Shown piece by piece: positions 3,972 to 63,972 of a stretch of DNA of 64,000 bases. Where the stretch lies: contig JBBDJY010000013.1 in the NCBI GenBank assembly GCA_040879645.1, positions 30,366 through 94,365 of the forward strand, written 5' to 3'. Origin of the DNA: Minisyncoccota bacterium (GTDB lineage Bacteria > Patescibacteriota > Minisyncoccia > Phycocordibacterales > XYD1-FULL-46-19). Below the pieces are notes generated by a model, which made no database searches, was not told where the DNA came from, and saw nothing but the letters and a program-made list of their open reading frames with translations. Numbering within the stretch: position 1 is the first letter of the stretch; each line of letters opens with the position of its first letter. Both the position numbers and the translations under genes were made by a program.

Positions 3972-4017
3972 TTGATTAATTTGAATTTTTAAAATCTCCC
4001 TCTAATTAATAATAAAA

Positions 4018-4761: not shown

Positions 4762-4821
4762 TTAATTGATGGAAGTTTGGAATTTTTCCAGATAGGATTA
4801 GAATATTCCGGAACGCCAATA

Positions 4822-4893
4822 AAAAATAAAGTTAGTAGTTAGGTAACCCAGACCCAAGCCCAACCATTACCTAACTACTAACTTTATTTTTAT
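4822..4893. terminator. Bidirectional Rho-independent terminator between yidC and the convergent operon
   Basis: Perfect 19-bp stem (aaagttagtagttaggtaa / ttacctaactactaacttt) with a 20-nt loop, flanked by an A-run and a T-run. Confidence 0.6.
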
Positions 4894-4906
4894 TAAGAAT
4901 TTTATT

Positions 4907-6995: not shown

Positions 6996-6998
6996 TGA

Positions 6999-8018: not shown

Positions 8019-8053
8019 TACTCTATTTTAAACTAATTTGTCCGGATAAGGAA

Positions 8054-8398: not shown

Positions 8399-8404
8399 AA
8401 TTGT

Positions 8405-10892: not shown

Positions 10893-11263
10893 GATAGGTC
10901 TTCCAACCGGCTATTCGACAGTCGGGGCAGGGCCGGCTCATTACTGTTTTCTTTATTTCCGCCGACACTTTTGGTTTTAATTTTTTCTGATTTTCGCCAG
11001 ATATATAATTTAGCGGTGAGTAAGTAACGGAAGAACATTTCAACCACATGAATAAACGGTCGGTTGTTAACTTGGTAAAAAGCCAAAGCCAAACCGAAAG
11101 CGATAATTATAATCATCGGGATAATGGCCAAGTAAATAGGTAATAACGCGTAGAAAATAAAAGCCAAACCGCCACTACCGGCCAGGTAGAGAAATTGTTT
11201 AAAAGTTAGGGGGCCGAAGATTCGGTCCTCAATCTCAATAAATTGTGGCACTTGAAAATTCAT
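10859..11263 (-). CDS. PrgI/VirB3-like small membrane protein
   Basis: 134 aa. MNFQVPQFIEIEDRIFGPLTFKQFLYLAGSGGLAFIFYALLP followed by two TMs matches the PrgI family. It lies immediately upstream of and overlapping the VirB4 gene, as in Gram-positive T4SS. Confidence 0.6.
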   Translation of the reverse strand: MNFQVPQFIEIEDRIFGPLTFKQFLYLAGSGGLAFIFYALLPIYLAIIPMIIIIAFGLALAFYQVNNRPFIHVVEMFFRYLLTAKLYIWRKSEKIKTKSVGGNKENSNEPALPRLSNSRLEDLSWNLDVKEKVK

Positions 11264-11376
11264 TACCCGATACGCTTAATTGTAGCATTGATTGAAAACG
11301 GACTCAAAGCAAAATCGCCTGACAATACCCGATAATCGACGGTTTTTAATTAAAGTCCACCGGCTTTTCTTGTCGA

Positions 11377-11988
11377 TTACTCCAACGGTTCTTTATAGGG
11401 GTCTTTTTCTATCCTTTCTTTGGATAAGGCCAAGTTATCGGTATCACCATCATTTTGTTTTTCGGTTTTGTCTGGGTTTTCTTCGTCTTCAATATCGGCC
11501 CGCCGATTGGTAAATAACGAACTCATTTTTTCAGCAAAAATATCCCGCCGATTTTCTTCTCCACTTTCGTTTTCAGAAGGTTTTTGCTTGTCCCCGGCTT
11601 CTTTTTCAACTTCTTTGTTTTCCGCCGGTGGTTCGGCCGGCGGTGTCGCCACTGTCGGGTCTTCGACTTCAAAACCGCGGACTTTTTGTAAAGAATCTTT
11701 AACCGGTCGGAAAATTTTCTCGTCTATTTCTTTGGCAATTTCTCGGGCCAGATCATTGGATATATGTAGTCGGCGAGCCAAGTTGCCGATATATTGCCCC
11801 GGTCGAGTTAGGCCCATCATTACCAAGCCGGTTTCTTCGGCCAACTCACCCATTTGGTCCACATGCAGGTGGTGCTTGACGCTTGCCTGACGGATAATGT
11901 CAGCCGTTTCGACGGCGACAATGGCGTCTTTCAAGTCCGTCGGTAATTTTTTAAAGACTTCATCTAATTGTTCTTGAGTGTAGTCCAT
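11377..11988 (-). CDS. Hypothetical protein with a structured N-terminal about 100 aa and an acidic disordered tail
   Basis: 203 aa, no TM, C-terminus rich in E, D and K. Part of the operon. Confidence 0.45.
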   Translation of the reverse strand: MDYTQEQLDEVFKKLPTDLKDAIVAVETADIIRQASVKHHLHVDQMGELAEETGLVMMGLTRPGQYIGNLARRLHISNDLAREIAKEIDEKIFRPVKDSLQKVRGFEVEDPTVATPPAEPPAENKEVEKEAGDKQKPSENESGEENRRDIFAEKMSSLFTNRRADIEDEENPDKTEKQNDGDTDNLALSKERIEKDPYKEPLE

Positions 11989-12004
11989 ATGATTGATTTG
12001 ATTA

Positions 12005-17600: not shown

Positions 17601-17723
17601 AGGGTCTTCCTCTTGGGCAAAAATATTTCTAACCGAGTCATTGAATACCGAGTAATAGATGAGGCCGGCACCGGCGCTTACCACCAGGGCGGTGATAATC
17701 ATTTTTTGTTTGGTCAGATTCAT
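14583..17723 (-). CDS. Giant secreted or surface protein with LPxxLxR tandem repeats and Gly-rich repeats
   Basis: 1046 aa with an N-terminal TM or signal. About 11-aa periodic LPAELER/LPNALQR/LPTALER motifs, repeated DVVDSVMGTVLDPLNE units and Gly-rich linkers. Overlaps the downstream gene by 41 nt. Confidence 0.6.
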   Translation of the reverse strand: MNLTKQKMIITALVVSAGAGLIYYSVFNDSVRNIFAQEEDPNQHLETMPSLEERTGTDQEALESEADYIEQLQNEDRQECLAQAGLGGGGEVGGALGQAAHNGLATITQETVNEHLPAELEREVTERLPAELERGIQNNLPDQLSRLLRLGTATRPSFEEALAANLNLNPGQTIDAETFEQIFRDTFTTSVETHLPNALQRTLNQALPDAFGRVLEEGLPTALERVMTENLPGAIETDLPEILNRDLSATTLDFLTTETAGLDGLTAQVLEQLNDDLLAEISTQAVASINNQNNLLTEDFTGIFGEQLATVLEDNGGALDEIVAQLSQGLGNGSIGGSAGGFVNQAVTEILGGTNMNQLMAGVNNQFSNIINTTVNDLTGSLLGSANGLINQVTGSVLAPLNDVVDSVMGTVLDPLNEVVDSVMGTVLDPVTGVFNNVLGGVGEAFNGALGSMTENVLGGLNLGSLTGPLGEAVGGAVEALTGGLGGLSLPGLNLIPGLGGGLYVPVKEVDGPLLSSNQNIDESTKSIQELTVQMCMYLKSIQRIQTAAEQREVMENPDLRRQAASNIEQYRHELADLVDRGHKTDGEGTESPLYVTDTERYLREVIQPETNQVYLDQLEGEESGDAFKAETAAALRRQISQPDIPRSSISREVYNNFVSGNTGSADVFQNLIAINNPFEANNPATSFMLNQTALSLRQRQAEENFRNELVAGQGYLPIRNCIEPTASGACAKWEITTPAIQVKESVADAFSYRQELYTDPEPGDLAPGNEPTAQEVLSFKPQSTGGGGGSPAAAAGGGGAGDMIQRILDVLSSLRNRETYTAPELTFNIAKPTANQIAAGNNIAVLNWEGQGIDTCVADNNWPAGNPTGSGIVPIVTDGETLDSNGEREITLPLNFGVNFLRERPGDITRIVTGTVISQSANDGSHQITTITMPDDIQGNDTFRIALGPNANSTSAGARDPYSVAIQIHADGGDKAGMVETFKQTINNTISSTNENTIQRNEFNKYLFNFRPTTGTITIKPKTNYQLRCTTNNGDPITKEITLGN

Positions 17724-34214: not shown

Positions 34215-34487
34215 TTATGACTTGACCTCAGCGTCTTTTAGTTTTTCGGCTTTGTCGTCCGCTTTCTTTTTCTTCTCTTCAAGAAACTTCAAATGAGCCC
34301 GTCGTTTGGAAACAAGCTTAAGTAAGCCACGACGAGAGTGGTGATCTTTGGCGTTTTTCTTTAAGTGGCCGGTCAGTTCTTTGATTCTTTCCGTCAGAAT
34401 TGCTACCTGGACTTCCGAAGAGCCGGTATCAGTATCATTGATGCCGGTTTTTTTGATGATTGTTTGCTTCTTTTTGGTTGTGAGCAT
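34215..34487 (-). CDS. rpsO: 30S ribosomal protein S15
   Basis: [49 protein letters not shown] is a canonical S15 sequence. Confidence 0.9.
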
Positions 34488-34652
34488 GGCTTGATAGTAG
34501 CATTTTTAGCCATTTCTTGCAAGGGCCGAGCTTACTTAAAGTTATTTGATTTCCTCATTAGTCAAAATACTGTTTATTTACAAGGGTTTATTCCGAAAGA
34601 CTAATTTTTTCTTTTAATTACTCTAACTATGTTATAATATTGTGCGACACAT

Positions 34653-35558
34653 ATGACCGAAATTCAAAGTCTAAAAACCAAATTTTTGGAATATCTGGAA
34701 ATTGAAAAAGGCCGGAGTTTAAAAACGGTGGAAAACTACGACCGTTATTTAAATCGGTTTTTTAATCAGGCTAAAATCAAACAAGCTGAAGATATTACCG
34801 ATGAGGCGGTGCGGGAATTCCGTTTGTGGCTTAATCGCCAACCGGGGACTTTGGGGGCCGAAACAATGAAAAAGAGCACACAAAATTATTATCTCATTGC
34901 TTTGCGCTCATTTTTGAAATATTTGGCCAAACAAAAAATTACCTCGCTTTCGCCGGAGCGGATTGAATTGGCTAAAACCCCGGGCCGGCAACTGGATTTA
35001 ATCAGTGAAGAAGAGTTAAATCGCCTACTTGAAGCCCCGGTCGGACAGACGGAAAAAGTGTTGCGGGATAAGGCGATTTTGGAGCTTTTATTCTCTACCG
35101 GTTTGCGAGTATCAGAGTTATGCAGTCTAAATATTGATACGGTTGATTTAAAACAAGATGAATTTTCCATTCGTGGTAAAGGCGAAAAAGTCAGATTAGT
35201 CTTTTTGTCGACTGAAGCCAAAACCTCATTGATAGCCTATTTACAAGCTCGCAAAGATATGGAGGAACCACTTTTTGTCGGCCAAGATCGATCCGGCCAG
35301 CCTCGGCGTTTAACTCCCCGGAGTATTGAGCGAATTGTTAAACACTATGCGATTGTCGCCGGCATTTCTCGTAAGGTTACACCCCATATTATCCGACATA
35401 GTTTTGCCACTGATCTTTTGCGAGGCGGAGCTGATATTCGTTCGGTCCAATTAATGCTTGGTCATGCCAATGTGGCGACAACTCAAGTTTATACTCATGT
35501 TACCGACCGACAATTAAAAGAAATGCACCGTCATTTTCACGGCAAGAGTCGCCACTAA
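34653..35558 (+). CDS. Tyrosine site-specific recombinase XerC/XerD
   Basis: 301 aa with an N-terminal SAM-like core-binding domain and the C-terminal catalytic residues (IRHSFATDLL...LGHANVATTQVYTHV). Confidence 0.85.
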   Translation: MTEIQSLKTKFLEYLEIEKGRSLKTVENYDRYLNRFFNQAKIKQAEDITDEAVREFRLWLNRQPGTLGAETMKKSTQNYYLIALRSFLKYLAKQKITSLSPERIELAKTPGRQLDLISEEELNRLLEAPVGQTEKVLRDKAILELLFSTGLRVSELCSLNIDTVDLKQDEFSIRGKGEKVRLVFLSTEAKTSLIAYLQARKDMEEPLFVGQDRSGQPRRLTPRSIERIVKHYAIVAGISRKVTPHIIRHSFATDLLRGGADIRSVQLMLGHANVATTQVYTHVTDRQLKEMHRHFHGKSRH

Positions 35559-38315: not shown

Positions 38316-38714
38316 ATGAATAATAATAAAAAACCGACGGAAAAACAGGTTATTGGTCGGCTGGGGGAAGACCTAGCGGCCGAATATTTAAAGAAAAATA
38401 AGTTTAAAATCAAGGAAATAAATTACTGGAAGCCGTGGGGAGAGATTGACATTATCGCGGTCAAAAATGACATTCTTCATTTTGTCGAAGTAAAGACAGT
38501 AACTGTTAAAAGTGTTAATCATGAAACCTATGATCGTTATGAACCGGAAGATAATATCCAACCGTGGAAATTAAGAAGATTATATCGGACGATTGAAAGT
38601 TATTTAGAAGAAAAGAAAATTGATGATGAGGCCGATTGGCAATTAGATGTGATGGCTGTTTATCTGGATCCGCAACGAAAATTATTGCAAATCGAATATT
38701 TACCCGATATTTAG
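38316..38714 (+). CDS. YraN/UPF0102 family endonuclease
   Basis: GRLGEDLAAEYLKKNKFKIKEINYW...GEIDIIA...HFVEVKT matches the UPF0102 signature. Confidence 0.8.
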   Translation: MNNNKKPTEKQVIGRLGEDLAAEYLKKNKFKIKEINYWKPWGEIDIIAVKNDILHFVEVKTVTVKSVNHETYDRYEPEDNIQPWKLRRLYRTIESYLEEKKIDDEADWQLDVMAVYLDPQRKLLQIEYLPDI

Positions 38715-46220: not shown

Positions 46221-46826
46221 ATGAGTATGCGAAAAATCCCTGATTCTCTCATAATGAAAAAAATACAAGACATCGCAGTTTTCTTTTTTATCCTATGTGT
46301 TGCCACTTTATCCTTTATTTCTATTTTGGGAATTTGGGAATTTTTTGAAGAAGAGATAATTTTAAAATCATTTCAAACAATTGGTCTTTTAGCGATTGTG
46401 GCCGTGAATGTAATTATTGTAGCCGTTTTTCGATTGGCGCTTTGGCGTGTTTCAATTGATACTAAAATCAGCGGGAATACTCATCTTCCAACGCCGCCGG
46501 TTGAAGTTAATCCGGTTTTTGCCGTTTTGCGTCATGGAATGATTATCTTATTGATTATCTCGGTGGTTTTATTGGCCCTATTTGGGATTTTGGCTATTTG
46601 GGAAGTTTTACCTAAGGATATTATTGGTAAATCATTAGCCTCAATTGCGACAATTGTTTTTGCTTCTTTTATTATCGTCTTTACTTGTCTTAGTCGGGAA
46701 AATCATAAATTATTACGGCCCAAAAAAGATAATCAACATCTATCGGCCGGCCGAATCATCCTATATGTTATTTTGGCTATTATTTTTATACCGTGGTTTG
46801 TTTCCCTTATGTTTTCTTTCTATTAA
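46221..46826 (+). CDS. Integral membrane protein, hypothetical (4-5 TM)
   Basis: 201 aa, hydrophobic. Confidence 0.45.
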   Translation: MSMRKIPDSLIMKKIQDIAVFFFILCVATLSFISILGIWEFFEEEIILKSFQTIGLLAIVAVNVIIVAVFRLALWRVSIDTKISGNTHLPTPPVEVNPVFAVLRHGMIILLIISVVLLALFGILAIWEVLPKDIIGKSLASIATIVFASFIIVFTCLSRENHKLLRPKKDNQHLSAGRIILYVILAIIFIPWFVSLMFSFY

Positions 46827-52676: not shown

Positions 52677-55631
52677 ATGAGTATGCTTTTCAAAAAAAAT
52701 AAAAAACCGGTAGCGATTATCGCTTTCGGTGCGCTTTTGTCTTTGGTTTTGGTTGGTACCGCTTTGGCTCAATATACCGGTCCTTGCGGTACGCCTGAAG
52801 AGTGTAACGCTCCGGCGCCGATTAATGTTAGCGTTGTCGAGCAGACGAAAATTGGATCTCTGATTTTAGGGACTTTAAGAACTCAACTTGGTACGGCTAT
52901 TGGTCATAATGACGGAGTTAGTACCAATGATCTTGGTCGCCGAAGTTTACAATTTACCACCGATACCGAATATGGTGGTATTCATAATGCTCATTCCGGA
53001 TATTTAATGTATTCCACTATGCCCGGTGGTTGGGGTACAGCTCGCCTGCATTTTGCTCGCTCTACTGGATGGAAAACTTATGACACAACTCCAACTTTGA
53101 CTTTGGCTGGCCGTCGAGTTGGCATTGGGACGGATATTCCTCAATATAGTTTGGATGTAGTTGGGAATCTCCGGGGTAGTAGTTTCTTAACAGAAAATAG
53201 CAATGGTTATAGGGGTCTTTTCTTTGTCCATGGTAGCGACCCAAGTAATTATCTTGGTTTGCGGTCAATAGCTATTTCCGGCTCAACTCAATTCCAACCG
53301 ATTCGTTTGCAACAGCAAATAGACGGCGGAAGCTTGACTAATAGGGTAACAATCAATGAGGCCGGCCGGTTAATTTTTCATAATTTACCGCAACAATCAG
53401 CCTATCCGCGGGTTTTAGTTACTGATGCAGATGGCATGATTGGTTTTAAACCGATCGGTGAAATTGACGGTGGCGACGGTGATAGTTTATGGTCCCAAGG
53501 CACGGGTGATAATATTTACCGTTCACTAGGTAATGTCGGAATCGGTGTTATTAGTCCGACTGGTCGACTACAGGTTGATGGAGGCGATGTTATATTCGAT
53601 AGAGGAGATTTTATATGGAACAATCAAAGCGAACCTTATAGGGCCACTTTTCGCGGTTGGAATGGAAATCAAGTTTTGGTAGTTGATGCGCAATCTGAAT
53701 CAGTTGCAATTGGTCATGAATTTCCATCCGCTAAACTTCATGTTTTGGGTTCTACTAGATTACAGTCTTTGCCTGAAAATTCTACCAATAATCGGGTAAT
53801 CACTGCTGATGATAACGGTAATTTAGGTTATAAAGAAATAGATACGCTTGGCGGTGGTGGCTTACCGGCTGGCTCGTCTTCGCAAACTTTGCGCTATGTC
53901 GGTGGTACGACTAATGCTTGGGTGGCTTCTTCCATTCTTGTAAATGACGGTCAACAGATTTTTGTCCTTGGTACCGATCCGCAAACATCCCTGATTACCG
54001 CTCAAAAAAATGCTCCCGATGTTCGAATTTCTCTTACCATTCCTCATTCCAGTGGTAGTGGTAATCATACTTGGAGTATCGCTAATGGTTGGCAGGTTGG
54101 GTCAGCCCCGGCAGATTCTTTCTCTATTCTTGACCAAACGGCGGGTCTTGCTCGTCTGTTGATTGCTCCGAGTGGTAATGTCGGTTTGGGAACCAATAAT
54201 CCCAGGAATAAGCTTCATATGCATCAATCGACTTCCGGGGCAACAAATTATATGCGATTTACCAATGCCACCACGGGCACCGGTTCTGGCGATGGGTCCC
54301 TCTATGGCCTGACCGCCGCCGGTAATGCTTTGATTTGGAATTATGAGCCGACTAATATTTCTTTTGCCACTAATAACTTGGAGCGAGTCAGGATAGCCAG
54401 CAATGGTCATGTTGGCATCGGAACCGCTAATCCGCAGGCACTCCTGGAAGTTGGTGGCGATACTTATGACGCTTCGGCTTTTGTTCGAGTTAATTCGTTG
54501 AGCAGTCGTGCCGCCGGCATTCAATGGGCTACCGCCGGTACTCCCCAGTGGTATCTTTATAAGCCGAATGACTCTTCCGGTAATTTGGTTTTTGCCAATC
54601 AAGGCAATAGTAATAGATTAGTCCTTAAACAAGATGGCGTTATCCAATTATCCAGCTTACCTGAACAATCAGCTCATCCGCGTGTGGTAGTCAGTGATAC
54701 GGCCGGTAATCTGGGGTGGAAAAGCGTAATGGAGTTAGGTGGTGGCGGTCTCCCGGCTGGTAATTCCAGTCAAACTTTGAGACACGATGGTACTAATTGG
54801 GTAGCGGCGAATAACCTGTTAAATTCAGGAACCAGTATAGCGGCGGATAATCAAATTGCAATTATCGGGACTGCTCCTCGGTTGCGGTTATTGACTGCGC
54901 CAGATACCGGTTGGAATCTGGATACTAGTAACGACCGATTTAGGATTTTCCACACTACAAGTCCAAACCCAACGATTGAGAGATTTACCATTATACCCAA
55001 TGGCAATGTTGGGATTAGAAATCCAAATCCCAGCAATTTGCTAGAAATTGGCCATGAGGCATTGTCAGCTGATAGTGTTTTTGTTTCTGTCTGGGCTGAT
55101 AATATTGTAGAAGCGGGATTACAATTAAAATCAGGTGGAACAGATGCGCCTAATGGTTGGGCTTGGGCCATATCTCGAAGTACGGGCAGTAATCCAGTTT
55201 TAAACATTAAAAATCGTACTAATGTACCTATAATGCGATTTACTCAAGGTGGAGATGTGTCTTTACCGACAGTTAGTCAGGATGATGTTGCCACTCGTTC
55301 GGTAGTGATTGACAATAACGGTAAGCTTGGCTGGCAAGAAGAATCCAGTCCTTATCTTTATGCTCAATTTGTCTATGAAGGAGGTAGTAATTTTAGTCCT
55401 TCTTCTCCAAACCCAGATGGTATTATGTGGAACACGGCAGAGAACTGGTGGAATCGTGATATGGCTTCTATGGAATGCCCCGCTGATTATACTCTTATCT
55501 CTGGAGGAGTGATGTGCCAACTAGGAGAAAGAGTTAACACTAATGCTCGGATTAATAATCAATGGGTAGTCAGTTGTGGAACTGAACTTGCCCACATACA
55601 AAGAATGTCAATTACCTGTGCTCGGGATTAA
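52677..55631 (+). CDS. Large secreted repeat protein (tail-fibre or adhesin-like) with GNVGIGTxNP-type motifs and three internal about 50-aa repeats
   Basis: 984 aa with a signal peptide. Recurrent GNVGIGV/GHVGIGTANP/GNVGLGTNNP motifs. Repeated block SLPE(N/Q)S..RV...D..GNLG(Y/W)K...LGGGGLPAG(S/N)SSQTLR. Cys-containing C-terminal domain. Confidence 0.6.
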   Translation: MSMLFKKNKKPVAIIAFGALLSLVLVGTALAQYTGPCGTPEECNAPAPINVSVVEQTKIGSLILGTLRTQLGTAIGHNDGVSTNDLGRRSLQFTTDTEYGGIHNAHSGYLMYSTMPGGWGTARLHFARSTGWKTYDTTPTLTLAGRRVGIGTDIPQYSLDVVGNLRGSSFLTENSNGYRGLFFVHGSDPSNYLGLRSIAISGSTQFQPIRLQQQIDGGSLTNRVTINEAGRLIFHNLPQQSAYPRVLVTDADGMIGFKPIGEIDGGDGDSLWSQGTGDNIYRSLGNVGIGVISPTGRLQVDGGDVIFDRGDFIWNNQSEPYRATFRGWNGNQVLVVDAQSESVAIGHEFPSAKLHVLGSTRLQSLPENSTNNRVITADDNGNLGYKEIDTLGGGGLPAGSSSQTLRYVGGTTNAWVASSILVNDGQQIFVLGTDPQTSLITAQKNAPDVRISLTIPHSSGSGNHTWSIANGWQVGSAPADSFSILDQTAGLARLLIAPSGNVGLGTNNPRNKLHMHQSTSGATNYMRFTNATTGTGSGDGSLYGLTAAGNALIWNYEPTNISFATNNLERVRIASNGHVGIGTANPQALLEVGGDTYDASAFVRVNSLSSRAAGIQWATAGTPQWYLYKPNDSSGNLVFANQGNSNRLVLKQDGVIQLSSLPEQSAHPRVVVSDTAGNLGWKSVMELGGGGLPAGNSSQTLRHDGTNWVAANNLLNSGTSIAADNQIAIIGTAPRLRLLTAPDTGWNLDTSNDRFRIFHTTSPNPTIERFTIIPNGNVGIRNPNPSNLLEIGHEALSADSVFVSVWADNIVEAGLQLKSGGTDAPNGWAWAISRSTGSNPVLNIKNRTNVPIMRFTQGGDVSLPTVSQDDVATRSVVIDNNGKLGWQEESSPYLYAQFVYEGGSNFSPSSPNPDGIMWNTAENWWNRDMASMECPADYTLISGGVMCQLGERVNTNARINNQWVVSCGTELAHIQRMSITCARD

Positions 55632-55647
55632 GGAAATCTTTTACCTC

Positions 55648-55680
55648 TTGACAAAATCATATCTCTCGTTCTATGATGAC
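55648..55680 (+). promoter_or_regulatory. Candidate sigma70-type promoter for the lipoprotein gene
   Basis: TTGACA-N18-TATGAT. A strong AGGAGG Shine-Dalgarno lies 7 nt before the ATG at 55783. Confidence 0.35.
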
Positions 55681-55782
55681 AATAGATAGTCCCGGATGTC
55701 AATCTGGGTTTGACAATTAGAAACTGTCATACTGTCTTCACAAACAAATCGCTTCACTGGGAAGCGAAGAAGGAGGTGTTCA

Positions 55783-56829
55783 ATGAAGCACCTGATTCTT
55801 TTTCTTGTCTGTGTCTCTTTGTTTTTCGGCTGTCCGCCGGTAGAACCGGGAGGCGATCTTTCCTTGAGTGTTTCCTTGCCAAACGGCAACAGCTTCGCTC
55901 AAGGCGAAACCTTTGTCGCCACGGTTACCTATGCCGGTAGTCGGGCGCCGTACTCTTTCAAGGTTGAATTTGATGATGGAGTTAGTGCCACTGGTACTAT
56001 CAACACCGAAAACAAACTCAGCTACTCGGTGGTACCGAGCTCCGGTTCGGTTTCATTGTATCTGGATTCTCCCGGGTATATTGAAGTCAATCGGCCGGTT
56101 TGGACAACAACCAAACCGTCCGGCCAGTCATCAGTGGTGATGACCTTGTCTGGCGCTGACGGGCAAGAGAAGTCCAAGGCTGTATCGGTCCAAGTGCCGG
56201 TATTGTCGGCATTGGCGTTGGAAGTGACGGCCAATGGCGGAGCGTTTGCTGTTGAAGATCATCTGGTATTTACGGTCACGGCTTTTGGTGGTCAACCCCC
56301 ATACTTGCTGGAGGCTGTGTTTCCTCCGGTAGAGGTATTTGATTCTGGTTTCACCGAGATTAGGGCGGAAACCGTAATCAATGCCAACGGAGACATTAGT
56401 TGGCCGTCGGGATTTGAAGACTACAATGTTGTACCTTCTTTGGCTCTGGGGCGTAACGTTGCTCGGATTATCTCATTTAAATCTGGGCATGTCTCGTTTC
56501 GTTACAAATGGTTCGAACTTGTTTCCGAACTTGGTTCAATTCGTGTGTCGGTGACTGATGACTTAGGTCAGGTTGTCACCGACAGCTTTCAGGCTGGGGT
56601 GGTCTTGGAAGAATCGATTCCTGTCATTGTCCCTAGTTTGATTGGTTGGGATGAACAGGAAGCTATTTCGGAGATTTTTAGCCTTGGTTTTTGGCCATCT
56701 TCGCCTAAGGTTTACGATACTTCACCTTTGGGTCAAGTGTTTCGTCAGGATCTTGACCCGGGAGAAGAAATCAATATCGGCAGTGTCTTTACTATTAGGG
56801 TTTCTGCCGGTCCGAACCCCAACCCGTGA
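55783..56829 (+). CDS. Lipoprotein with Ig-like repeats and a C-terminal PASTA-like domain
   Basis: Signal peptide with LFFGC lipobox, tandem beta-sandwich domains, and a C-terminal PSLIGWDEQEAISEIFSLGFWPSSPKVYDTSPLGQVFRQDLDPGEEINIGSVFTIRVS segment with PASTA topology. GC-richer than its neighbours. Confidence 0.5.
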   Translation: MKHLILFLVCVSLFFGCPPVEPGGDLSLSVSLPNGNSFAQGETFVATVTYAGSRAPYSFKVEFDDGVSATGTINTENKLSYSVVPSSGSVSLYLDSPGYIEVNRPVWTTTKPSGQSSVVMTLSGADGQEKSKAVSVQVPVLSALALEVTANGGAFAVEDHLVFTVTAFGGQPPYLLEAVFPPVEVFDSGFTEIRAETVINANGDISWPSGFEDYNVVPSLALGRNVARIISFKSGHVSFRYKWFELVSELGSIRVSVTDDLGQVVTDSFQAGVVLEESIPVIVPSLIGWDEQEAISEIFSLGFWPSSPKVYDTSPLGQVFRQDLDPGEEINIGSVFTIRVSAGPNPNP

Positions 56830-57083: not shown

Positions 57084-57122
57084 AATAAAAACGCTCGGTC
57101 AGAATCTAATCTGACCGAGCGT
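57084..57122 (-). terminator. Rho-independent terminator of the ATP-grasp gene
   Basis: Perfect 13-bp stem acgctcggtcaga/tctgaccgagcgt with a U-run on the minus strand. Confidence 0.6.
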
Positions 57123-57137
57123 TAGGGGGCAATAGAA

Positions 57138-58145
57138 TTACCCTTTTTCCAGACTCTTGAGCACTTTCAAGTACAAGTTCTCGACGATGCGCTCTTGCGC
57201 TTTGCCCGCCTTGGCGTAATGGTCGAGACCGGGTGTCGAGTTGACCTCCAAGACCCAATAATGATCGGGCGGTTGACTGAGATCACCGGCGACAATCAAA
57301 TCGACCCCGCAAAAACGCAACCCCATCGCTCGAGTCAACCGGATGGCGATTTGGGCGAACTCGGAGTGAATCTGATTACTAACATCGACCGCGTCGCCAC
57401 CGGTTGAGAGATTGGTATTAGCCAAGAGGAAGACTTGCTCGTTTCGACTTGGCACCGAATCGAAGGTGAGGCCGAGATGCTTTAATTTTGAGCTCATTCG
57501 CGGATCGTCGAGTTTGATCTTAGTATCACGACTGGAGGCGACAAATTGACGTTGTTTTTTCTTCAGCAATCCCAAGATTGTTGAGCGGCCGTCGCCGATT
57601 ACGCTTAGAGGTAAGCGCTCGTAAGCGGAGATGATTTCGTCATCAAGGACGACGATCCGATAATCTCGACCGGAGACCGGACGTTGCACCAGAGCGACCC
57701 GATCGCGTTTGAAGATTCGCCCCAGAGCTTGATCGAACTCAACTCGATTGTGCGCCAGATTGACGTCAAACCCTTGACTGGAACTGTTGGGCTTGACGAT
57801 TACCGGCCAGCCGAGCTTCCGCGCATAACGATAAGCGGCCTCGTGATCGCGCCGGGAATTGATCGCCCGACACCAATCATCAGAATAGAAGGCCTGGCCG
57901 GATACCACCGGATAACCCTCCTTTTTGATAAAGAAGGCGGCAAAGTCCTTGTCACGCGCCAACTCCGAGGCGCCCATCGGGTTAAGGTCAAGGGTTGAAT
58001 ACTTGAAGTAACATCTCCGACCATTCTTGAAAGCGATCTGGCCGACAATCTGCCAATTCGGTTCCATGGTTACCACCGCTCCGATTCGGGGAGCGACTTT
58101 CCGCAAAACTGTCCCGAGTAAGGGAGTGGGGTGTTTCTTTTTCAT
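57138..58145 (-). CDS. ATP-grasp family ligase (RimK/GshB/cyanophycin-synthetase-like)
   Basis: GWPVIVKPNSSSQG, GRDYRIVVLD, NLSTGG and YWVLEVNSTPG motifs. GC-rich relative to the rest of the window. Confidence 0.7.
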   Translation of the reverse strand: MKKKHPTPLLGTVLRKVAPRIGAVVTMEPNWQIVGQIAFKNGRRCYFKYSTLDLNPMGASELARDKDFAAFFIKKEGYPVVSGQAFYSDDWCRAINSRRDHEAAYRYARKLGWPVIVKPNSSSQGFDVNLAHNRVEFDQALGRIFKRDRVALVQRPVSGRDYRIVVLDDEIISAYERLPLSVIGDGRSTILGLLKKKQRQFVASSRDTKIKLDDPRMSSKLKHLGLTFDSVPSRNEQVFLLANTNLSTGGDAVDVSNQIHSEFAQIAIRLTRAMGLRFCGVDLIVAGDLSQPPDHYWVLEVNSTPGLDHYAKAGKAQERIVENLYLKVLKSLEKG

Positions 58146-58343
58146 CGGTTTATCCTTTCGTTAGTTGGTTTAATTTTGGCAAAAAATTGCCTCGATTGTC
58201 AATTTTATCTATTTAATCTATCTTGACATTAAAATAATAATGGTATTTTGTCAAAGAAGAGATCTTGCTATAAAATCATAATTATGGTAGAGTAAAATGA
58301 GATTTAGTGTGATAAAGAAGTTGGACCTTGAAAGCCAAAAGAC

Positions 58344-59675
58344 ATGGAGGCTAATGTTATGGAAGAAGCAGATACTCTAAACATTGAAGGTGGGCATCCA
58401 CTTGAAGGTGAAGTCTTTGTTCGTGGCGCCAAAAACACCGTACCTAAAAGCATGGTGGCGACGTTGCTTACAAATGATACCTGTGTGATTAAAAATGTCG
58501 CGCGTATTGTCGATGTAGATATAATGCGTGACATGATCTCGGCGTTTGGTGGTGATGTGACGTTCACACATGACCACACTCTTCAGATAACCACTCCGTC
58601 GCTCACACAGATTCCTTTAGATCAAATGGGAGAATTCGCTGGCAAGAGCCGTATCCCCGTTCTTGCTTGCGGTCCATTACTGAGACGCACTGGACACGTC
58701 ATTGTTCCTACTCTTGGAGGTTGTCAGATCGGGAATCGTCCCATCGACTTCCACATCGAGGCCCTAAAAATTCTCGGGGCGCGAGTCGAGGTATACGAAA
58801 CGCACCTGGAGATGTTCGCTGACCGTTTGCGCGGAGCGAAAATCAGGTTGCCATATCCAAGTATCGGTGCAACCGAGCAGATTCTTTTTTCTTCGGTTTT
58901 GGCGGATGGGGTTACAGAAATAAGCAACGCTGCTATCGAACCAGAGATTATGGACCTGATTGCGGTACTCCAAAAGATGGGGGCGATCATATCCGTGGAT
59001 ACTCATAGGGTAATCACGATCTACGGAGTAGAGAAACTCTCTGGGTTTACACATCAAGCACTTCCTGACAGGCTGGAAGCGGCATCTTGGGCATGTTTGG
59101 CCGCGGCGACAAATGGTAAGATTTTTGTAAGGGGCGCCGAACAAATGAACATGATGACATTCCTCAACGCTTTTCGTCAGGCTGGTGGTGCCTTTGAGAT
59201 CACGGAATCTGGTATTGAGTTCTCTCGAGAGAGTAAAACCCTTAAGGCGATGGCACTTGAAACAGATGTTCATCCGGGGTTTATGACCGACTGGCAGCAA
59301 CCATTCGCCGTCATGCTCACTCAAGCCGATGGTTTGTCCGTCATACATGAGACTGTCTACGAAGGTCGCTTCGGCTATATCGAAGCCCTCAAGTTGATGG
59401 GTGCTCAAATCCAGCTCTATCAGAAATGTCTCGGGCAAATCAGTTGCCGTTTCGCCAATCGCGATGCATTTCACAGTGCCGTGATTGCGGGACCAACGGC
59501 TCTAAAGGGGGCAAGGATCCACATCCCAGATCTCCGTGGTGGTTTTTCTTACATCATCGCCGCATTGGTTGCTCAAGGTTCCTCAAGCCTAAGTAATATC
59601 GGGCTTATCCGTAGAGGGTACGAGGATATCGTTGGGAAACTCCGAGCCATTAAAGCAAGCATTCAGGAGGAATGA
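58344..59675 (+). CDS. murA: UDP-N-acetylglucosamine 1-carboxyvinyltransferase (MurA/EPT family), canonical-looking copy in a GC-rich context
   Basis: GAKNTVPK, the active-site loop LGGCQIGNRPIDFHI (Cys present), NAAIEPEIMDL, HPGFMTDWQQPF and RGYEDI. Confidence 0.8.
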   Translation: MEANVMEEADTLNIEGGHPLEGEVFVRGAKNTVPKSMVATLLTNDTCVIKNVARIVDVDIMRDMISAFGGDVTFTHDHTLQITTPSLTQIPLDQMGEFAGKSRIPVLACGPLLRRTGHVIVPTLGGCQIGNRPIDFHIEALKILGARVEVYETHLEMFADRLRGAKIRLPYPSIGATEQILFSSVLADGVTEISNAAIEPEIMDLIAVLQKMGAIISVDTHRVITIYGVEKLSGFTHQALPDRLEAASWACLAAATNGKIFVRGAEQMNMMTFLNAFRQAGGAFEITESGIEFSRESKTLKAMALETDVHPGFMTDWQQPFAVMLTQADGLSVIHETVYEGRFGYIEALKLMGAQIQLYQKCLGQISCRFANRDAFHSAVIAGPTALKGARIHIPDLRGGFSYIIAALVAQGSSSLSNIGLIRRGYEDIVGKLRAIKASIQEE

Positions 59676-59701
59676 TTGTCCTTCTAATATCAACACACTC
59701 A

Positions 59702-59733
59702 AAGCACGATATGAAGCCATATCGTGCTTTTAT
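59702..59733 (+). terminator. Rho-independent terminator between the two MurA-like genes
   Basis: 12-bp perfect stem aagcacgatatg/catatcgtgctt followed by tttt. Confidence 0.5.
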
Positions 59734-59843
59734 TGACTAGAGTTAGTTTATCCATAAGAGGTTTGAATCTATTCTTATTTTGTCTTTTTGTCTTCTTTAT
59801 TATACAATAACATCATCAATTTTAACTTTAAAATACGAGGAAA

Positions 59844-61148
59844 ATGTCATATTTCAGTATCAATGGTGGACGGAAATTAAGCGGTTCAATTAAGGTTAAT
59901 TCCTGTAAAAACTCAGCGGTGGCAATTTTGTGTTCCACGATTATGATTAAAGGAGAAACGACCCTTGTTAATGTTCCGGCGATTGAAGAGGTTAAAAGAA
60001 TAATAGAAGTTTTAACTTCATTAGGATTAAAAATTACATGGGAAGAAGAGCATAAATTAAAAATTCTTAACGAGGAACAAATAAAACCGGAAAATCTGAA
60101 TCAAGAATCATTTGCCAAAACGAGATCCGGGATACTTCTTTTAGGGGCGCTTTCTGGAGTAAGTAATAATTTTTCCTTACCAAAAACCGGTGGTTGTAAA
60201 TTAGGAAAAAGAACAGTCAATCCTCATATATTATCGTTAGGACATTTAGGGGTAAAAATACAAGAAACTACCGATTCTTATCTCATTACAAAAGAGGATT
60301 TAAAAAAATCAGAGTTTGTTATGTATGAATCTGGTGATACCGCGACAGAAAATGCTATTATGACAGCTTCCTTGATTCAAGGAAAGACCACAATTCATTT
60401 CGCTTCTTCTAATTATATGGTTAGAGATTTGTGTTATTTTTTAAAACGAGCCGGGGTAAAGATAGGAGACCTTGATTCTTTTAATATAATTATTGATGGT
60501 GTTGAAAAACTGAAACCAGTAAATGATTACTCCATCATGCCTGATCCCATAGAGGCTATGACTTTGATATCAATCGCCATCACAACTAAATCTAATCTAA
60601 AGGTGATTGGTTGCCCTATTGATTTTCTTCGTTTGGAGCTAGAAAAATTACAAACAATGGGGCAAAAATTTAATGTCAGTGAAATATACAAATCAGATAA
60701 TAATTATTTTGACTTAGTCGATATTGAGATTATTCCTTCAAACCTAACAGCATTGCCAGATAAAATTTACGGCAGTCCTTATCCAGGTTTAAATATAGAC
60801 AATCTTCCTTTATTTTTACCAATCCTCACTCAGGCTGAAGGTCAAACATTAGTCCACGATTGGGCTTATGAAAATAGAGCTATTTATTATACAGAAATGA
60901 ACCGTTTGGGGGCTGATATCATGCTACTTGATCCATATCGAGTGATTGTTTCTGGTCCGACACAATTAGAACCTGCCGAAATCATCTGTCCCCCAGCATT
61001 AAGACCATCAATAAATTTATTAACTTGCATGTTAGCGGCTTCAGGGAAATCAATTCTAAGAAACGCTTATCCAATAGATCGAGGTTATGAAAATATTGTC
61101 GGTAGACTTAACGATATCGGCGCTAATATCCAAAGACTGGATGATTAA
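59844..61148 (+). CDS. MurA/EPT-family enolpyruvyl transferase paralog (AT-rich, more divergent)
   Basis: 434 aa. The Cys loop (KTGGCKLGKRTVNPHI) and C-terminal DRGYENIV are retained, but the NAAxEPEI motif is not conserved. Confidence 0.7.
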   Translation: MSYFSINGGRKLSGSIKVNSCKNSAVAILCSTIMIKGETTLVNVPAIEEVKRIIEVLTSLGLKITWEEEHKLKILNEEQIKPENLNQESFAKTRSGILLLGALSGVSNNFSLPKTGGCKLGKRTVNPHILSLGHLGVKIQETTDSYLITKEDLKKSEFVMYESGDTATENAIMTASLIQGKTTIHFASSNYMVRDLCYFLKRAGVKIGDLDSFNIIIDGVEKLKPVNDYSIMPDPIEAMTLISIAITTKSNLKVIGCPIDFLRLELEKLQTMGQKFNVSEIYKSDNNYFDLVDIEIIPSNLTALPDKIYGSPYPGLNIDNLPLFLPILTQAEGQTLVHDWAYENRAIYYTEMNRLGADIMLLDPYRVIVSGPTQLEPAEIICPPALRPSINLLTCMLAASGKSILRNAYPIDRGYENIVGRLNDIGANIQRLDD

Positions 61149-61213
61149 TTAAAAATCACCCAGTCTGTATGACCGGGTGATGTGTTTGTACTATTATTCC
61201 GGAGACTTAAGTG

Positions 61214-61990
61214 TCAATAACCGAATTTTCTGGCGGTTTCCCCGCACATATCTTCGATTATTCGAAACTCAGTCTCAAGCGACCCTGACGATATGTCACT
61301 CCTCCTGCCAAAAAAATCTTCAAGAGAGGATTGCTTGATCTTTGGCAGTTTTTCTTTAAAATCTAATTCAATCCCCAGATGTGTCGCTATCCTTTCTACG
61401 GTAGCGGTTTGGTTTTGAATTAAATCTTCATAACGAACGACATGAACTCCCAAACTACGAGAGGAGAGAATAGTATCGGCAATCAAGTTCCATGCGAGGC
61501 ATTGATTTTTTGTGCCCTCTTTCAGAGCATCAAAGGTTGTCTTCCATGACAAGATGGTAAATTTGGGATCCCTCACAATCACAATTACTCCACCACCTAG
61601 ATCCTTGTTCATCCATTTGACAAAGTCTGGCCATTCTTGAATGAACAATTGAAAGAAATCTTTGTTCGAAAAGGCTGGGAAAGATTTCTTAATTCCAACA
61701 ATCCTCATTCCATCAAGGGAACGTTTTACCATTCCCCATCTGGTTTTTGAAGGAGGAAAAGTATCGGTCACTTCCAATCCTTTAATGTCGATCCTTTGCA
61801 TCATGAAACCATATCGTAAACTTTCTTCGATAAAGTTAAATATGGTTGTGATGTTTGATCGGTCAGAAATGTTCACTGAATTCAATGGCTCGTTGACAAT
61901 TGACATGTTTGTCGTGCAGTTGAGAATCTTGATCAACAAACTACTACCACTTCTTGACGGGGCAGAAATATAAAGTGGCTTAAGTTTCAT
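61214..61990 (-). CDS. Sulfotransferase-family protein
   Basis: 5'-PSB-like P-loop ISAPSRSGSSLL and 3'-PB-like VIVRDPKFTILSW. Confidence 0.6.
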   Translation of the reverse strand: MKLKPLYISAPSRSGSSLLIKILNCTTNMSIVNEPLNSVNISDRSNITTIFNFIEESLRYGFMMQRIDIKGLEVTDTFPPSKTRWGMVKRSLDGMRIVGIKKSFPAFSNKDFFQLFIQEWPDFVKWMNKDLGGGVIVIVRDPKFTILSWKTTFDALKEGTKNQCLAWNLIADTILSSRSLGVHVVRYEDLIQNQTATVERIATHLGIELDFKEKLPKIKQSSLEDFFGRRSDISSGSLETEFRIIEDMCGETARKFGY

Positions 61991-62400
61991 CTTTATACCT
62001 CCTCATGTTATGGCCAGTTTTCAAGGTGCAACTTCGACACAATATCAAAGCTCATCTCACTCTACCATAAATATTATCCTATAGCAAGATATCATTGTTC
62101 TAACTAAAGACATTTGGCTCTTTAATTAATCCTAGTATTTCATTGGGATCCTTGCCATTTAGACCGCAATGTTTCAAATCATTGTCATAGTCATTCCACG
62201 GTTAAGGGTTGATTTTTATTGGACCCTAACAACAAAATTCACAAAATTGAATCAGGCATCCCAAAAACGTCTCAATCGAGCCGTTTTTTGGTGAAGCCGG
62301 AAAAATCAGCTGTTTTCTCTTGCCAACAAAATTAAGGGGAGTAGCTTCAAGATAGGTTCTCCGGAACAGTTCCGGAGAAAAACTTGGTCTTTGAAAGGAG

Positions 62401-63069
62401 GTGAAAATGAGATGCGTCTTTACTTTAACAGATGGTAATCCAGAGTATCTTCAGAACAGAGGGAAAAAATCCCTCGAGTTCTGCGCCGGAACTTATCTAC
62501 GGACTGAGATTGCCAATGCCTTTGATTATTATGGAGTGAAGGACAGGTACACCCTCTTTGTTGACGTGGACACTATGATCTTGAACGAGATTGATCTGGA
62601 TGACGTCGAGACTTCCTATTTTGCGGCATCGCCAGATTGGGATATCTCAGATTGGTCTTCTGTAGGCACAGGAGTGATGCTAATCAACATAGAGAGGATG
62701 AAGAGAGATTATCCCAAGTTGGTCCAACATCTAATCAAGCACAACTTCGATTTTGCTTTTGATGGCAATGGACCATGTAGCCAAGGAGCTTGGAATACTT
62801 TTTTCAGAGGCAAATGGGATAGACTCGATCCTCTCTATGATTGGAAACCATGGTGGGGTTTCAATCCAGAAGCAAAAGTCGTCCATTTTTCTGGTCCAAA
62901 ACCAAAAGAGATTCCTCGTCTTTTGGTAGACCAAACCAACAAGAAAGGAAAGAGTGAGTCAGAAGAGATTAAGCGATTTGTAGTTAACTGCAACAGAGAA
63001 GCTTTCTTGCGATATTCATCCATGTGGGAAGAATATCGAAAAATCTCAGAGTCCAAGGATTTTGAGTAA
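62401..63069 (+). CDS. Glycosyltransferase, GT8-like nucleotide-diphospho-sugar transferase fold
   Basis: DxD motif FVDVDTMIL and a C-terminal VVHFSGPKPKE typical of GT8. Confidence 0.6.
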   Translation: MKMRCVFTLTDGNPEYLQNRGKKSLEFCAGTYLRTEIANAFDYYGVKDRYTLFVDVDTMILNEIDLDDVETSYFAASPDWDISDWSSVGTGVMLINIERMKRDYPKLVQHLIKHNFDFAFDGNGPCSQGAWNTFFRGKWDRLDPLYDWKPWWGFNPEAKVVHFSGPKPKEIPRLLVDQTNKKGKSESEEIKRFVVNCNREAFLRYSSMWEEYRKISESKDFE

Positions 63070-63111
63070 GAAGACTGTCAATTCTAACAACACACAGAAA
63101 GGAACCGTGTC

Positions 63112-63333
63112 ATGAGTTTGGGAATTCTGAACGATCTGGGTGGGCAGAAGTTTGTCAAATCGACCTTCTCCCAATATGTCTGGAACAGGTGCGTCGAGGT
63201 ATCCATCGGCAAGGACCTTGTCGTGGTTCGCGATTCCAAGAACCAGGCCGGACCCGTGCTGAACTTCAACCATGATGAGTGGAGGGCTTTCGTTCAGGGC
63301 GTCAAGAACGACGAATTCGATCTGCCTTCTTAG
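63112..63333 (+). CDS. DUF397 domain protein (actinobacterial type)
   Basis: W...CVEVSIGKDLVVVRDSKNQAGPVLNFNHDEWRAFVQGVKNDEFD closely follows the DUF397 consensus. GC-rich. Confidence 0.7.
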   Translation: MSLGILNDLGGQKFVKSTFSQYVWNRCVEVSIGKDLVVVRDSKNQAGPVLNFNHDEWRAFVQGVKNDEFDLPS

Positions 63334-63399
63334 TCATCTTCTCGAGCATATTTTCACTATCAACACGGCAAAATCGCCAGACCCCGTCTGGCGATTTTT

Positions 63400-63972
63400 T
63401 TATTGACCAGATTTATCAGGTATTTTTGTCCGTAATGGGATTTTTGCTTCAGGTAAATTGCTTTCGAAAAATTGGAGATGCCCGGCACCTGTTACGATCA
63501 CAATTCGATCGTTCTCTATCATTAATTTTTTAATATTTTCAAGCATTATTTTTTCTCTTTGATTTTCGTTATCCATATTGAACAATAACGGTAAGAGTGG
63601 ATCATTTAATAAATTATTAACTGTCTCGTTGTTAAATTCTTTCCAAGAATGTTTCTCGATGATAGATTGTTGATTCTCCATCAATTTTTTATATTCTTGA
63701 TCATTTGGTCCTTTTCCTTTTATAAAATAAGAGTGCTGGCTGTCCACATCAAAAGTACCAACTTCCAGTCCGCGATCTTTGGCCCAATGATAAGCGAAGA
63801 CCAGCTCTTCGGCATAAATTTGTCTCGCCTTCATCTCTAAAGACGGTACTCCTGTTAATTCAACCAAAACCTGATCCGGTTCTAAATCCTCCAAGATTTT
63901 TTGTAACTCTTCTTTAGGAGTATATTTACCGTGGATGGTTCCAATGATGAAAATTTCTCTCATGTTTATCAT
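63400..63972 (-). CDS. TraB/GumN/PrgY-family protein
   Basis: N-terminal IIGTIHGK...PDQVLVEL and C-terminal TGAGHL match the TraB-family signature. Confidence 0.6.
   Translation of the reverse strand: MINMREIFIIGTIHGKYTPKEELQKILEDLEPDQVLVELTGVPSLEMKARQIYAEELVFAYHWAKDRGLEVGTFDVDSQHSYFIKGKGPNDQEYKKLMENQQSIIEKHSWKEFNNETVNNLLNDPLLPLLFNMDNENQREKIMLENIKKLMIENDRIVIVTGAGHLQFFESNLPEAKIPLRTKIPDKSGQ

Follow-up and report, generated by a model that had tools for sequence, protein, structure and literature searches.

How did a member of the Patescibacteria come to carry two dissimilar genes of the MurA family side by side, together with a sulfotransferase gene, and did the genes on either side of them arrive by the same route? 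The question is raised by a 6.8-kb stretch of DNA (positions 57138-63972) at the end of a 64,000-nt segment of contig JBBDJY010000013.1 (positions 30,366 to 94,365, forward strand) from assembly GCA_040879645.1, a metagenome-assembled genome (MAG) named Candidatus Paceibacterota. This whole segment is referred to here as the window, and positions are those of the window unless a related locus is named. The stretch holds seven open reading frames (ORFs), encoding an ATP-grasp ligase, two MurA-family proteins (MurA1 and MurA2), a sulfotransferase, a GT8-like protein, a DUF397 protein and a TraB-like protein. All seven lie at the positions given in an initial annotation, and six of its seven family assignments were confirmed with Pfam or NCBIfam profiles, the GT8 assignment falling below its cutoff.

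The initial annotation had taken this stretch, by eye, for a GC-rich island acquired from Actinobacteria. We consider it probable that the stretch instead consists of three juxtaposed parts, set in a Paceibacterota genome of ~44% GC. The first part would be a lineage-typical, stand-alone gene for an ATP-grasp ligase. The second, which is the main subject here, would be a cassette of ~3.8 kb made of two modules, exchanged laterally among Patescibacteria and placed at differing chromosomal sites by lineage. The third would be a small variable tail, in which the GT8-like gene and an orphan DUF397 gene lie in one apparent operon, accompanied by a short gene of the TraB family.

Conservation, position and architecture of the two-MurA cassette

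The MurA1-MurA2-sulfotransferase trio was found in the same order in a relative (loci L002, L003 and L004, from three ENA assemblies), with protein identities to the window of 87%, 91% and 86-87%, respectively. In a blastn comparison, window positions 58247-62004 (3.76 kb) aligned with positions 9898-13605 of L002 at 83% nucleotide identity over 3767 columns, as a single block that includes the intergenic spacers, whereas all other genes common to the two aligned at 64-70% in the same search; these background genes include those for PNPase, an NYN-domain protein, rpsO, an XerC-like recombinase, a CCA-adding enzyme, a Mg-chelatase-like protein, HU and RNase Y. Codon alignments gave fourfold-degenerate-site identities of 55% for MurA1, 68% for MurA2 and 70% for the sulfotransferase, compared with 33-59% for ten background orthologs, which are 41-70% identical at the nucleotide level and 26-75% identical as proteins (at least 50% in nine of the ten).

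The position of the block also differs between the two genomes. Window positions 23-45 kb are collinear with positions 1-21 kb of L002, in which the trio is placed between rpsO and the xerC-like gene. In the window, rpsO (34293-34480) and the xerC-like gene (34653-35558) are adjacent, leaving an empty site, a spacer of ~165 nt at about 34488 to 34652 (the start is approximate; the rpsO match ends at 34480), and the trio lies 23 kb from there, flanked by the ATP-grasp gene on one side and the GT8-like gene on the other. Base composition travels with the block: MurA1, MurA2 and the sulfotransferase have 49, 35 and 40% GC in the window and 49, 37 and 42% GC in L002, where the neighbouring genes are mostly 50-55%. 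MurA2 is therefore 35-37% GC in hosts of 44% and of ~50-55% GC, and in 80 other species the GC content of the MurA2-type gene follows that of its locus over a range of 0.29-0.53. It is likely that the cassette retains its own patchwork base composition whatever the GC content of its host.

A block far more alike than the genomes that carry it, a different site and an empty site are together best explained by lateral exchange within Patescibacteria, a reading that, on these sequence comparisons, appears well supported. As in other transferred cassettes and repeat-bounded islets, the site of the block differs between collinear relatives and one of them retains the empty site, identity exceeds the background at synonymous sites as well, composition is independent of the host, and the block is flanked by repeats. 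Unlike those elements, the cassette has no integrase or transposase gene and no tRNA target, either within it or at its borders. The xerC-like gene next to it in L002 is a resident gene, found at the empty site of the window as well, and the repeats of the cassette serve also as copies of a promoter and leader.

These repeats define a somewhat larger element than the block shared with L002, extending from 58239 to 62114. The cassette ends are proposed to be inverted repeats formed by two inward-facing copies of one promoter and leader sequence. The left arm (58239-58333, forward strand) holds the leader of MurA1 and a promoter-like site (TTGTCA-17-TAAAAT, 58248-58276, forward strand), and the block shared with L002 begins within it at 58247. 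The right arm (62019-62114, reverse strand) is a diverged copy of the same promoter and leader, facing inward before the sulfotransferase gene; the shared block ends at 62004. The two arms are ~80% identical, with a local alignment score of 71 against 19.5 ± 2.7 for shuffled sequences. A 32-nt core of the repeat occurs in the window at the cassette ends only (0 occurrences expected by chance), and a looser 28-nt version was found, among 177 loci, only in L002 to L004 and in L001, a Logan contig from run SRR27977663 over this same region. The block of L002 lies between two direct copies of a repeat that share a perfect core of 33 nt, TAGCACGTAATGCTTAAATTTGTCAAGTGAAGT (9880-9912 and 13665-13697). 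This direct repeat scores far above shuffled sequences, as does the inverted repeat of the window, and its right copy lies 53 nt before the start codon of the xerC-like gene. The common sequence suggests co-regulation of MurA1 with the sulfotransferase through a shared promoter and leader. A riboswitch or structured leader was considered for the repeated 5' region and rejected, as there was no Rfam match at E-values up to 5 and no conserved fold (alifold energy -0.18 kcal/mol; single-sequence z-scores -0.05, -1.9 and +0.8).

Between the arms, the first module would consist of a canonical-type MurA with its own promoter and terminator. The MurA1 gene (58359-59675, forward strand, 438 aa) is followed by a terminator-like hairpin (59696-59735, forward strand), an inverted repeat whose position is kept in L002 (11349-11378). 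The second module would consist of a Patescibacteria-type MurA, again with its own promoter, and a convergent sulfotransferase of the type that uses 3'-phosphoadenosine 5'-phosphosulfate (PAPS). It opens with a promoter-like site (TTGTCT-17-TACAAT, 59780-59808, forward strand), which is also the left edge of the module held in common with another locus, L011. The MurA2 gene follows (59844-61148, forward strand, 434 aa) and faces the sulfotransferase gene (61214-61990, reverse strand, 258 aa), a terminator-like hairpin lying between the two at 61155-61181.

The two modules also occur apart. L011 shares with the window only the segment from the MurA2 promoter (from 59780) to the start of the sulfotransferase, at 75.5% nucleotide identity, and there the module is paired with another canonical MurA, which shares 33% identity with MurA1 and 49% with an E. 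coli MurA reference sequence. In L014, MurA2 and the sulfotransferase stand alone, and the module is conserved in four genome types in all. Relatives of MurA2 with 82-86% identity stand alone, and genes of the MurA1 type are solitary in L005, L093 and L175, where their GC content (48-54%) is above that of their surroundings, if only slightly so in L093. A metagenome scan with the MurA1 alignment, which relied on generic patterns, placed one of 80 loci (L093) in the Patescibacteria MurA1 clade; a genome scan using the sulfotransferase alone found nothing. In none of the relatives examined were the ATP-grasp, GT8-like, DUF397 or TraB-like genes found beside the trio.

Several further observations concern these related loci. 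The solitary genes of the MurA1 type have a conserved stretch just 5' of the ribosome-binding site (TTCTTTCACACAACC in L005 and L175, TTCTTTAACACAACC in L093; about 9975-10000, 7955-7985 and 3825-3850 in L005, L175 and L093, respectively), and the cassette copies of MurA1 in the window and in L002 carry a leader unlike theirs. On L005, a 404-kb contig, the MurA1-type gene (48% GC) lies in a region (10001-13845) whose neighbours are 33-39% GC, near genes for an acyl-CoA dehydrogenase-like protein and a hexapeptide transferase (both 49% GC), and a NUDIX gene of 37% GC lies between MurA1 and these two. A GC-rich patch of the kind that the initial annotation had expected is thus seen here, in a different genome. 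In L014, about eight tandem copies of an 8-nt unit, ATATCTCA, precede the sulfotransferase gene (~6115-6175).

Two MurA types and a sulfotransferase

MurA1 scored 456.7 bits against the MurA equivalog profile TIGR01072, above its cutoff of 392.7 bits. MurA2 reached 315.9 bits against the same profile, below the cutoff, and passed the subfamily profile NF006873 (cutoff 297 bits) at 321.9 bits. The two proteins are 26-28% identical, and their genes differ in composition (49.3% GC, with 48.5% GC at third codon positions (GC3), for MurA1; 34.7% GC and GC3 26% for MurA2). The mechanically called MurA1 frame starts at 58344 (443 aa); the start is most likely at 58359 (438 aa), because GGAGG lies 8 nt before that ATG and public gene calls give 438 aa.

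The nearest relatives of MurA1 (75-87% identity, ~26 clusters) are, where named, from Falkowbacteria, Parcubacteria and Andersenbacteria, most of the listed clusters being nameless. The next tier, at 63% identity or less, contains as named members Acidobacteria and one family of Actinobacteria amid many nameless proteins. This canonical type was found in few Patescibacteria. These relatives mark MurA1 as a non-Patescibacteria type of MurA that came into the radiation at some time and now circulates there, and they point to no specific donor, nor to an actinobacterial one in particular. For MurA2, 120 clusters were listed at 64-100% identity, the named ones mostly Patescibacteria, and at least 590 matching loci were found among the species-representative genomes of GTDB. 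In 80 fetched loci from 80 species, a gene of the MurA2 type was the sole MurA within 8 kb on either side, so it is most probably this type that serves the radiation as its MurA. About 30 MurA2-type loci, in addition to L017, L019 and L022, come from records of species-representative MAGs titled 'uncultured Gammaproteobacteria bacterium'; given their Patescibacteria-type MurA and low GC content, these titles look like placeholders or mistakes.

Eleven active-site positions were compared (E. coli numbering: K22, N23, R91, C115, R120, D305, R331, D369, L370, R371 and R397), using a reference sequence of E. coli MurA; the same active-site motifs are visible in alignments to the structures 5ujs and 3r38. 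MurA1 retains all eleven. MurA2 retains the equivalents of ten (K22, N23, R91, C115, R120, D305, R331, L370, R371 and R397), the position of D369 being occupied by Pro-Ala inside a CPPALRP motif that is invariant across 27 family members. Since both proteins keep the equivalents of Cys115, Lys22, Arg120, Asp305 and Arg397, both probably transfer enolpyruvate from phosphoenolpyruvate (PEP) to UDP-N-acetylglucosamine (UDP-GlcNAc). A cell that carries the cassette would then possess, for the first committed step of peptidoglycan synthesis, a pair of strongly divergent isozymes (28% identity).

Low-GC Gram-positive bacteria are known to have two MurA isozymes (MurAA and MurAB, also called MurA1 and MurA2, or MurA and MurZ). 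As there, one genome here holds two MurA-family genes, and both encode the catalytic cysteine and, apart from D369 in MurA2, the remaining active-site residues. The Gram-positive enzymes are moderately similar paralogs at separate loci, whereas those of the window are 26-28% identical, in tandem and from different MurA lineages, and would be xenologs that are exchanged laterally as part of one block with a sulfotransferase. The best-ranked titles and abstracts on MurA, Patescibacteria and peptidoglycan held nothing on two MurA genes in this radiation.

The sulfotransferase exceeded the cutoffs of two Pfam families, PF13469 (Sulfotransfer_3; 37.9 bits, cutoff 27) and PF00685 (Sulfotransfer_1; 34.8 bits, cutoff 22). 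Like the PAPS-dependent members of these families it has a PSRSGSS loop in its N-terminal part as well as an IVRDP stretch, and across its orthologs the sequences PSRSGSSLL and IVR(D/N)P are conserved. A profile built from four orthologs matched only sulfotransferases in the PDB, with a best E-value of 1.4e-3, a very remote similarity (E ~1e-3) to the solved structures. A structure model predicted from the single sequence was unusable, with a predicted local distance difference test score (pLDDT) of 34. The gene adjoins MurA2 in L002, L011 and L014, with protein identities of 86%, 75% and 57%, respectively, and the enzyme probably sulfates an acceptor related to the cell envelope. To our knowledge there is no other case of such a sulfotransferase conserved beside murA, and none appeared in the best-ranked titles and abstracts of the literature mentioned above. 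In L002 (12819-13592), a stop codon removes the last 20 residues (238 aa rather than 258 aa), and this copy may be in early decay.

Base composition and the genes beside the cassette

The description of the stretch as a GC-rich island depended on an AT-rich norm that the window does not have. Positions 5001-57137 are 44.3% GC, and the gene medians across the window are 44.6% GC and GC3 44.4% (standard deviation (sd) 8.5). An impression of an AT-rich norm probably came from the first 5 kb. This patch (28.5% GC over positions 1-5000) holds, within positions 1-4800, the replication-origin genes dnaN (29% GC), dnaA (27%) and yidC (33%), with GC3 of ~21% for dnaN and dnaA, as well as an rnpA-like ORF and an ORF of 85 aa with 22% GC. 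Its junction with the GC-richer secretion-system genes that follow is confirmed by an independent Logan contig (L177, 4617-9025).

Against this background, the first of the two patches that had been described as clearly GC-richer (57138-59675) does stand out, at 49.0% GC against a 95th percentile of 47.4% for 2.5-kb windows, and the second (61214-63333) does not, being below the window median at 41.5%. The first patch is mildly GC-rich because of the ATP-grasp gene, the GC3 of MurA1 being typical, and the GC-rich gene in the second is that for DUF397 alone (222 nt, 51.8% GC). Gene by gene, GC3 is 61% for the ATP-grasp ligase (+2 sd), 48.5% for MurA1, 26% for MurA2 (-2.2 sd), 41% for the sulfotransferase, 44% for the GT8-like protein, 70% for DUF397 (+3 sd) and 33% for the TraB-like protein. 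MurA2 (34.7% GC) and the TraB-like gene (34.6% GC) are outliers on the AT-rich side, and the uniform excess of GC over the host genome that would be expected of an island was not found.

Outside the cassette, the gene for the ATP-grasp amino-acid ligase (57138-58145, reverse strand, 335 aa, 52.8% GC, with Pfam RimK and Dala_Dala_lig_C matches) lies beside a terminator-like hairpin at 57090-57123. More than 100 clusters of homologs were listed at 60-89% identity, all of ~335 aa; most are nameless, and every named one is from Patescibacteria (Vogelbacteria, Taylorbacteria, Liptonbacteria, Doudnabacteria and Parcubacteria). In Vogelbacteria the gene has different, unrelated neighbours. From these matches the ligase appears to be a radiation-wide family and not an actinobacterial import. 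Its matches in the PDB are the ATP-grasp domains of GshAB and CphA (3ln7 and 7wac), to which its own is homologous; unlike those enzymes, the window protein, at 335 aa, is without a Mur-ligase-like or glutamate-cysteine ligase domain. Against the cyanophycin synthetase profile TIGR02068 it scored 153.6 bits, well below the 850 bits required, over profile positions 207-471 of 862, and its public name 'cyanophycin synthetase' claims more than the sequence supports.

The variable tail begins with the GT8-like gene (62401-63069, forward strand, 222 aa). This glycogenin-like assignment is weak: the Pfam match to PF01501 reached 13.5 bits (E = 0.055) against a cutoff of 24.3, glycogenin-2 (4ueg) matched over the DxD region with an E-value of 1.3e-3, and a single-sequence structure model was unusable (pLDDT 33). 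No relatives were found among the fetched loci except in L012. The gene for DUF397 (63112-63333, forward strand, 73 aa) follows 42 nt downstream and is itself followed by a terminator-like hairpin (63370-63398). The DUF397 protein scored 59.1 bits against PF04149 (cutoff 24), with the family motifs intact. That the family is actinobacterial held among the named records matched, since all matches among 72,556 plasmid records were from Actinobacteria, at 38-50% identity; its best match anywhere is 68% identical and comes from a metagenome contig. The two closest full-length relatives (62-68%) share with it a distinctive SQY-WN-CVEV motif and the low-GC amino-acid make-up, and an old transfer of this gene from a GC-richer donor is plausible. 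A search against PHROGs matched DUF397 only (phrog_10815, for which no function is known there; E = 5e-15), and the DUF397 domain thus circulates in phages too.

XRE-DUF397 regulator pairs are described in Streptomyces (PMC10364602, PMC6262351). The window protein resembles their DUF397 members in being a full domain with the conserved family motifs. It differs in following a GT8-like gene in a Paceibacterota MAG and in having low-GC metagenome proteins as its closest relatives, and no XRE partner was found, the gene upstream (62401-63069) giving no helix-turn-helix match in Pfam at E-values up to 10. The last gene of the stretch (63400-63972, reverse strand, 190 aa) encodes a short protein of the TraB/PrgY/GumN family, which passed PF01963 marginally and over a short stretch (29.2 bits against 26.8). 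Its N-terminus matches positions 1-39 only of TIGR00261, and no PDB sequence match was found. Look-ups of exact copies of this protein and of the 443-aa MurA1 frame gave no match.

Elsewhere in the window, two AT-rich ORFs lie in the 44% GC background, one of 201 aa (46221-46826, 34.5% GC, GC3 30%) without a family and one of 132 aa (38316-38714, 35% GC) whose ortholog in L002 is annotated as UPF0102. Positions 4907-17723 (reverse strand) hold a type IV secretion-like cluster reminiscent of that of Patescibacteria (PMC12102498), with a T4SS pilin domain protein (6114-6995), a VirB4/TraG-like ATPase (8405-10237) and two large proteins of 872 and 1046 aa with family matches that are absent or below threshold. 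Directly upstream of the 6.8-kb stretch (52677-56829) are a protein of 984 aa that contains internal repeats and matches no Pfam family, and then a 348-aa protein with a C-terminal PASTA domain. L001 extends from the 984-aa gene through the sulfotransferase, with proteins 100% identical to those of the window and the same junctions. The Logan assembly of SRR27977663 breaks at 62376-62397, where L001 ends and L012 starts, beside a short hairpin, TTCTCCGGAAC..GTTCCGGAGAA; this break, between the cassette and the GT8-like gene, could reflect population variation there or a mere limit of assembly.

Candidates of other kinds were also considered. PADLOC matched none of the seven proteins (0/7), which led us to reject a defence system. 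In the spacer between rpsO and the xerC-like gene, the window and L002 share 15 nt in inverted orientation, which on visual comparison gave no convincing fit to the dif site of E. coli. A search of IMG/VR for carriage by phages returned no relatives of MurA2, the sulfotransferase, the GT8-like protein or DUF397.

Weighing the readings and what the cassette may mean

Conservation of the trio could in principle be explained without any transfer, if it were inherited vertically, held unusually constant by selection and relocated by rearrangement in one lineage. MurA is indeed a slowly evolving, essential enzyme, gene order is partly rearranged in these genomes, and the block has no mobility gene. 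Yet the excess identity is seen at fourfold-degenerate sites (55-70% against 33-59% in ten background genes) and in the intergenic DNA, which aligns at ~83% as well, the non-essential sulfotransferase is conserved as much as the MurA proteins, the composition of the block is constant in hosts of unlike GC, and its modules are found separately in other genomes; we hold vertical descent to be decidedly unlikely. An assembly or binning chimera of AT-rich and GC-richer populations is extremely improbable. The GC steps are sharp at gene borders and the source is a MAG, but L001 reproduces the junctions exactly, the three ENA assemblies that supplied L002, L003 and L004 show the same gene order and GC pattern, and the GC step near 5 kb is likewise borne out by L177. 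It is also very unlikely that the stretch is a GC-rich envelope and glycan-modification island from Actinobacteria, possibly from a host, interleaved with a native AT-rich MurA, as the initial annotation had it. In its favour are DUF397, which in the plasmid database is confined to Actinobacteria and here has a GC3 three sd above the median, the GC3 of the ATP-grasp gene (61%), and MurA1, a type foreign to the radiation, as had been proposed, with one named protein of its next tier (61% identity) from Solirubrobacteraceae. Against it, the window is 44% GC with the second patch under the median, the named best matches among those listed are from Patescibacteria for the ATP-grasp ligase (60-89%) and MurA1 (75-87%), as they are for MurA2, the next tier of MurA1 is mixed with Acidobacteria first, orthologs of the sulfotransferase (57-86% identity) adjoin MurA2 in related contigs, and DUF397 is at most 50% identical to the sampled actinobacterial copies while its two closest full-length relatives (62-68%) are low-GC in amino-acid composition. 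The AT-rich MurA is of the type typical of Patescibacteria, as the word native implied, but it is carried here within the same transferred block as MurA1.

What survives of that proposal is that the stretch is mosaic and that horizontal transfer was involved. It had named best matches within the organism's own lineage and conservation of the block in relatives as the findings that would speak against it, and these are largely what the searches appear to give, the trio being conserved in L002 where absence from relatives had been expected. A link to Actinobacteria as an epibiont's hosts, suggested by analogy with Saccharibacteria, does not suit an organism named Candidatus Paceibacterota, for which no actinobacterial host link was found, and a joint pathway of ATP-grasp ligase, MurA, sulfotransferase and GT8 is without support from gene order, as neither the ATP-grasp gene nor the GT8-like gene is consistently found beside the MurA genes. 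A narrower alternative is that MurA2 and the sulfotransferase form a specialised pathway, for example to an enolpyruvylated, sulfated sugar for a surface glycan, while the adjoining canonical MurA does the housekeeping. The module is conserved in four genome types, a different canonical MurA adjoins it in two independent cases (MurA1 here and the MurA of L011), and MurA2 has no Asp369 equivalent and scores below the murA equivalog cutoff. On the other hand, the MurA2 type with CPPALRP is the sole MurA within 8 kb in 80 species, its occurrence at 590 loci or more fits a housekeeping enzyme of the radiation, the sulfotransferase adjoins it in only one of 80 loci, and its close relatives (82-86% identity) are solitary; we therefore think such a pathway unlikely.

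Some points weigh against lateral exchange of a functional two-MurA cassette, or limit how far it can be taken. ORF and Pfam scans found no recombinase, transposase or integrase within 58239-62114. Neither a recognisable att site nor a target-site duplication was found for the cassette, and the repeats, candidate recombination sites, may instead be no more than duplications of a promoter. With fourfold-site identities of 55-70%, the exchange would not be recent, and the sequences seem to indicate neither donor nor direction. MurA proteins are conserved anyway, so the excess identity at the protein level counts for less than the synonymous-site, intergenic and positional evidence. With regard to function, MurA2 is without the Asp369 equivalent, no genes for PAPS synthesis were seen near any of the copies, and the count of two murA genes covers 64 kb of the genome, so there may be a third elsewhere.

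Lateral exchange of the cassette within Patescibacteria is, as we see it, best regarded as a modest comparative-genomics observation, with the function of the trio inferred from its sequences. It documents the exchange, between distant lineages of Patescibacteria, of a cassette that involves the essential first enzyme of peptidoglycan synthesis, and it shows that the type of MurA native to the radiation is repeatedly linked to a sulfotransferase and to a second MurA of foreign type. It also corrects a tempting reading of gene flow from an actinobacterial host to its epibiont, which these data do not support, and it illustrates how a visual impression of base composition can reverse the direction assigned to a transfer. 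That MurA2 and the sulfotransferase, joined by a different canonical MurA in at least two lineages, form a mobile cell-wall cassette of episymbiotic Patescibacteria, changing the first step of wall synthesis, is rather unlikely. If true, such a cassette could give redundancy or bypass of the target of PEP-analogue inhibitors such as fosfomycin, or could channel enolpyruvyl-UDP-GlcNAc, or else a precursor of the wall, towards a product that is sulfated, and both of its ends would be co-regulated from a duplicated promoter and leader. A difference between the two MurA enzymes in their regulation or their sensitivity to inhibitors, or action of the sulfotransferase on a precursor of the wall, would make the cassette relevant to how ultra-small episymbionts build and protect their cell walls.

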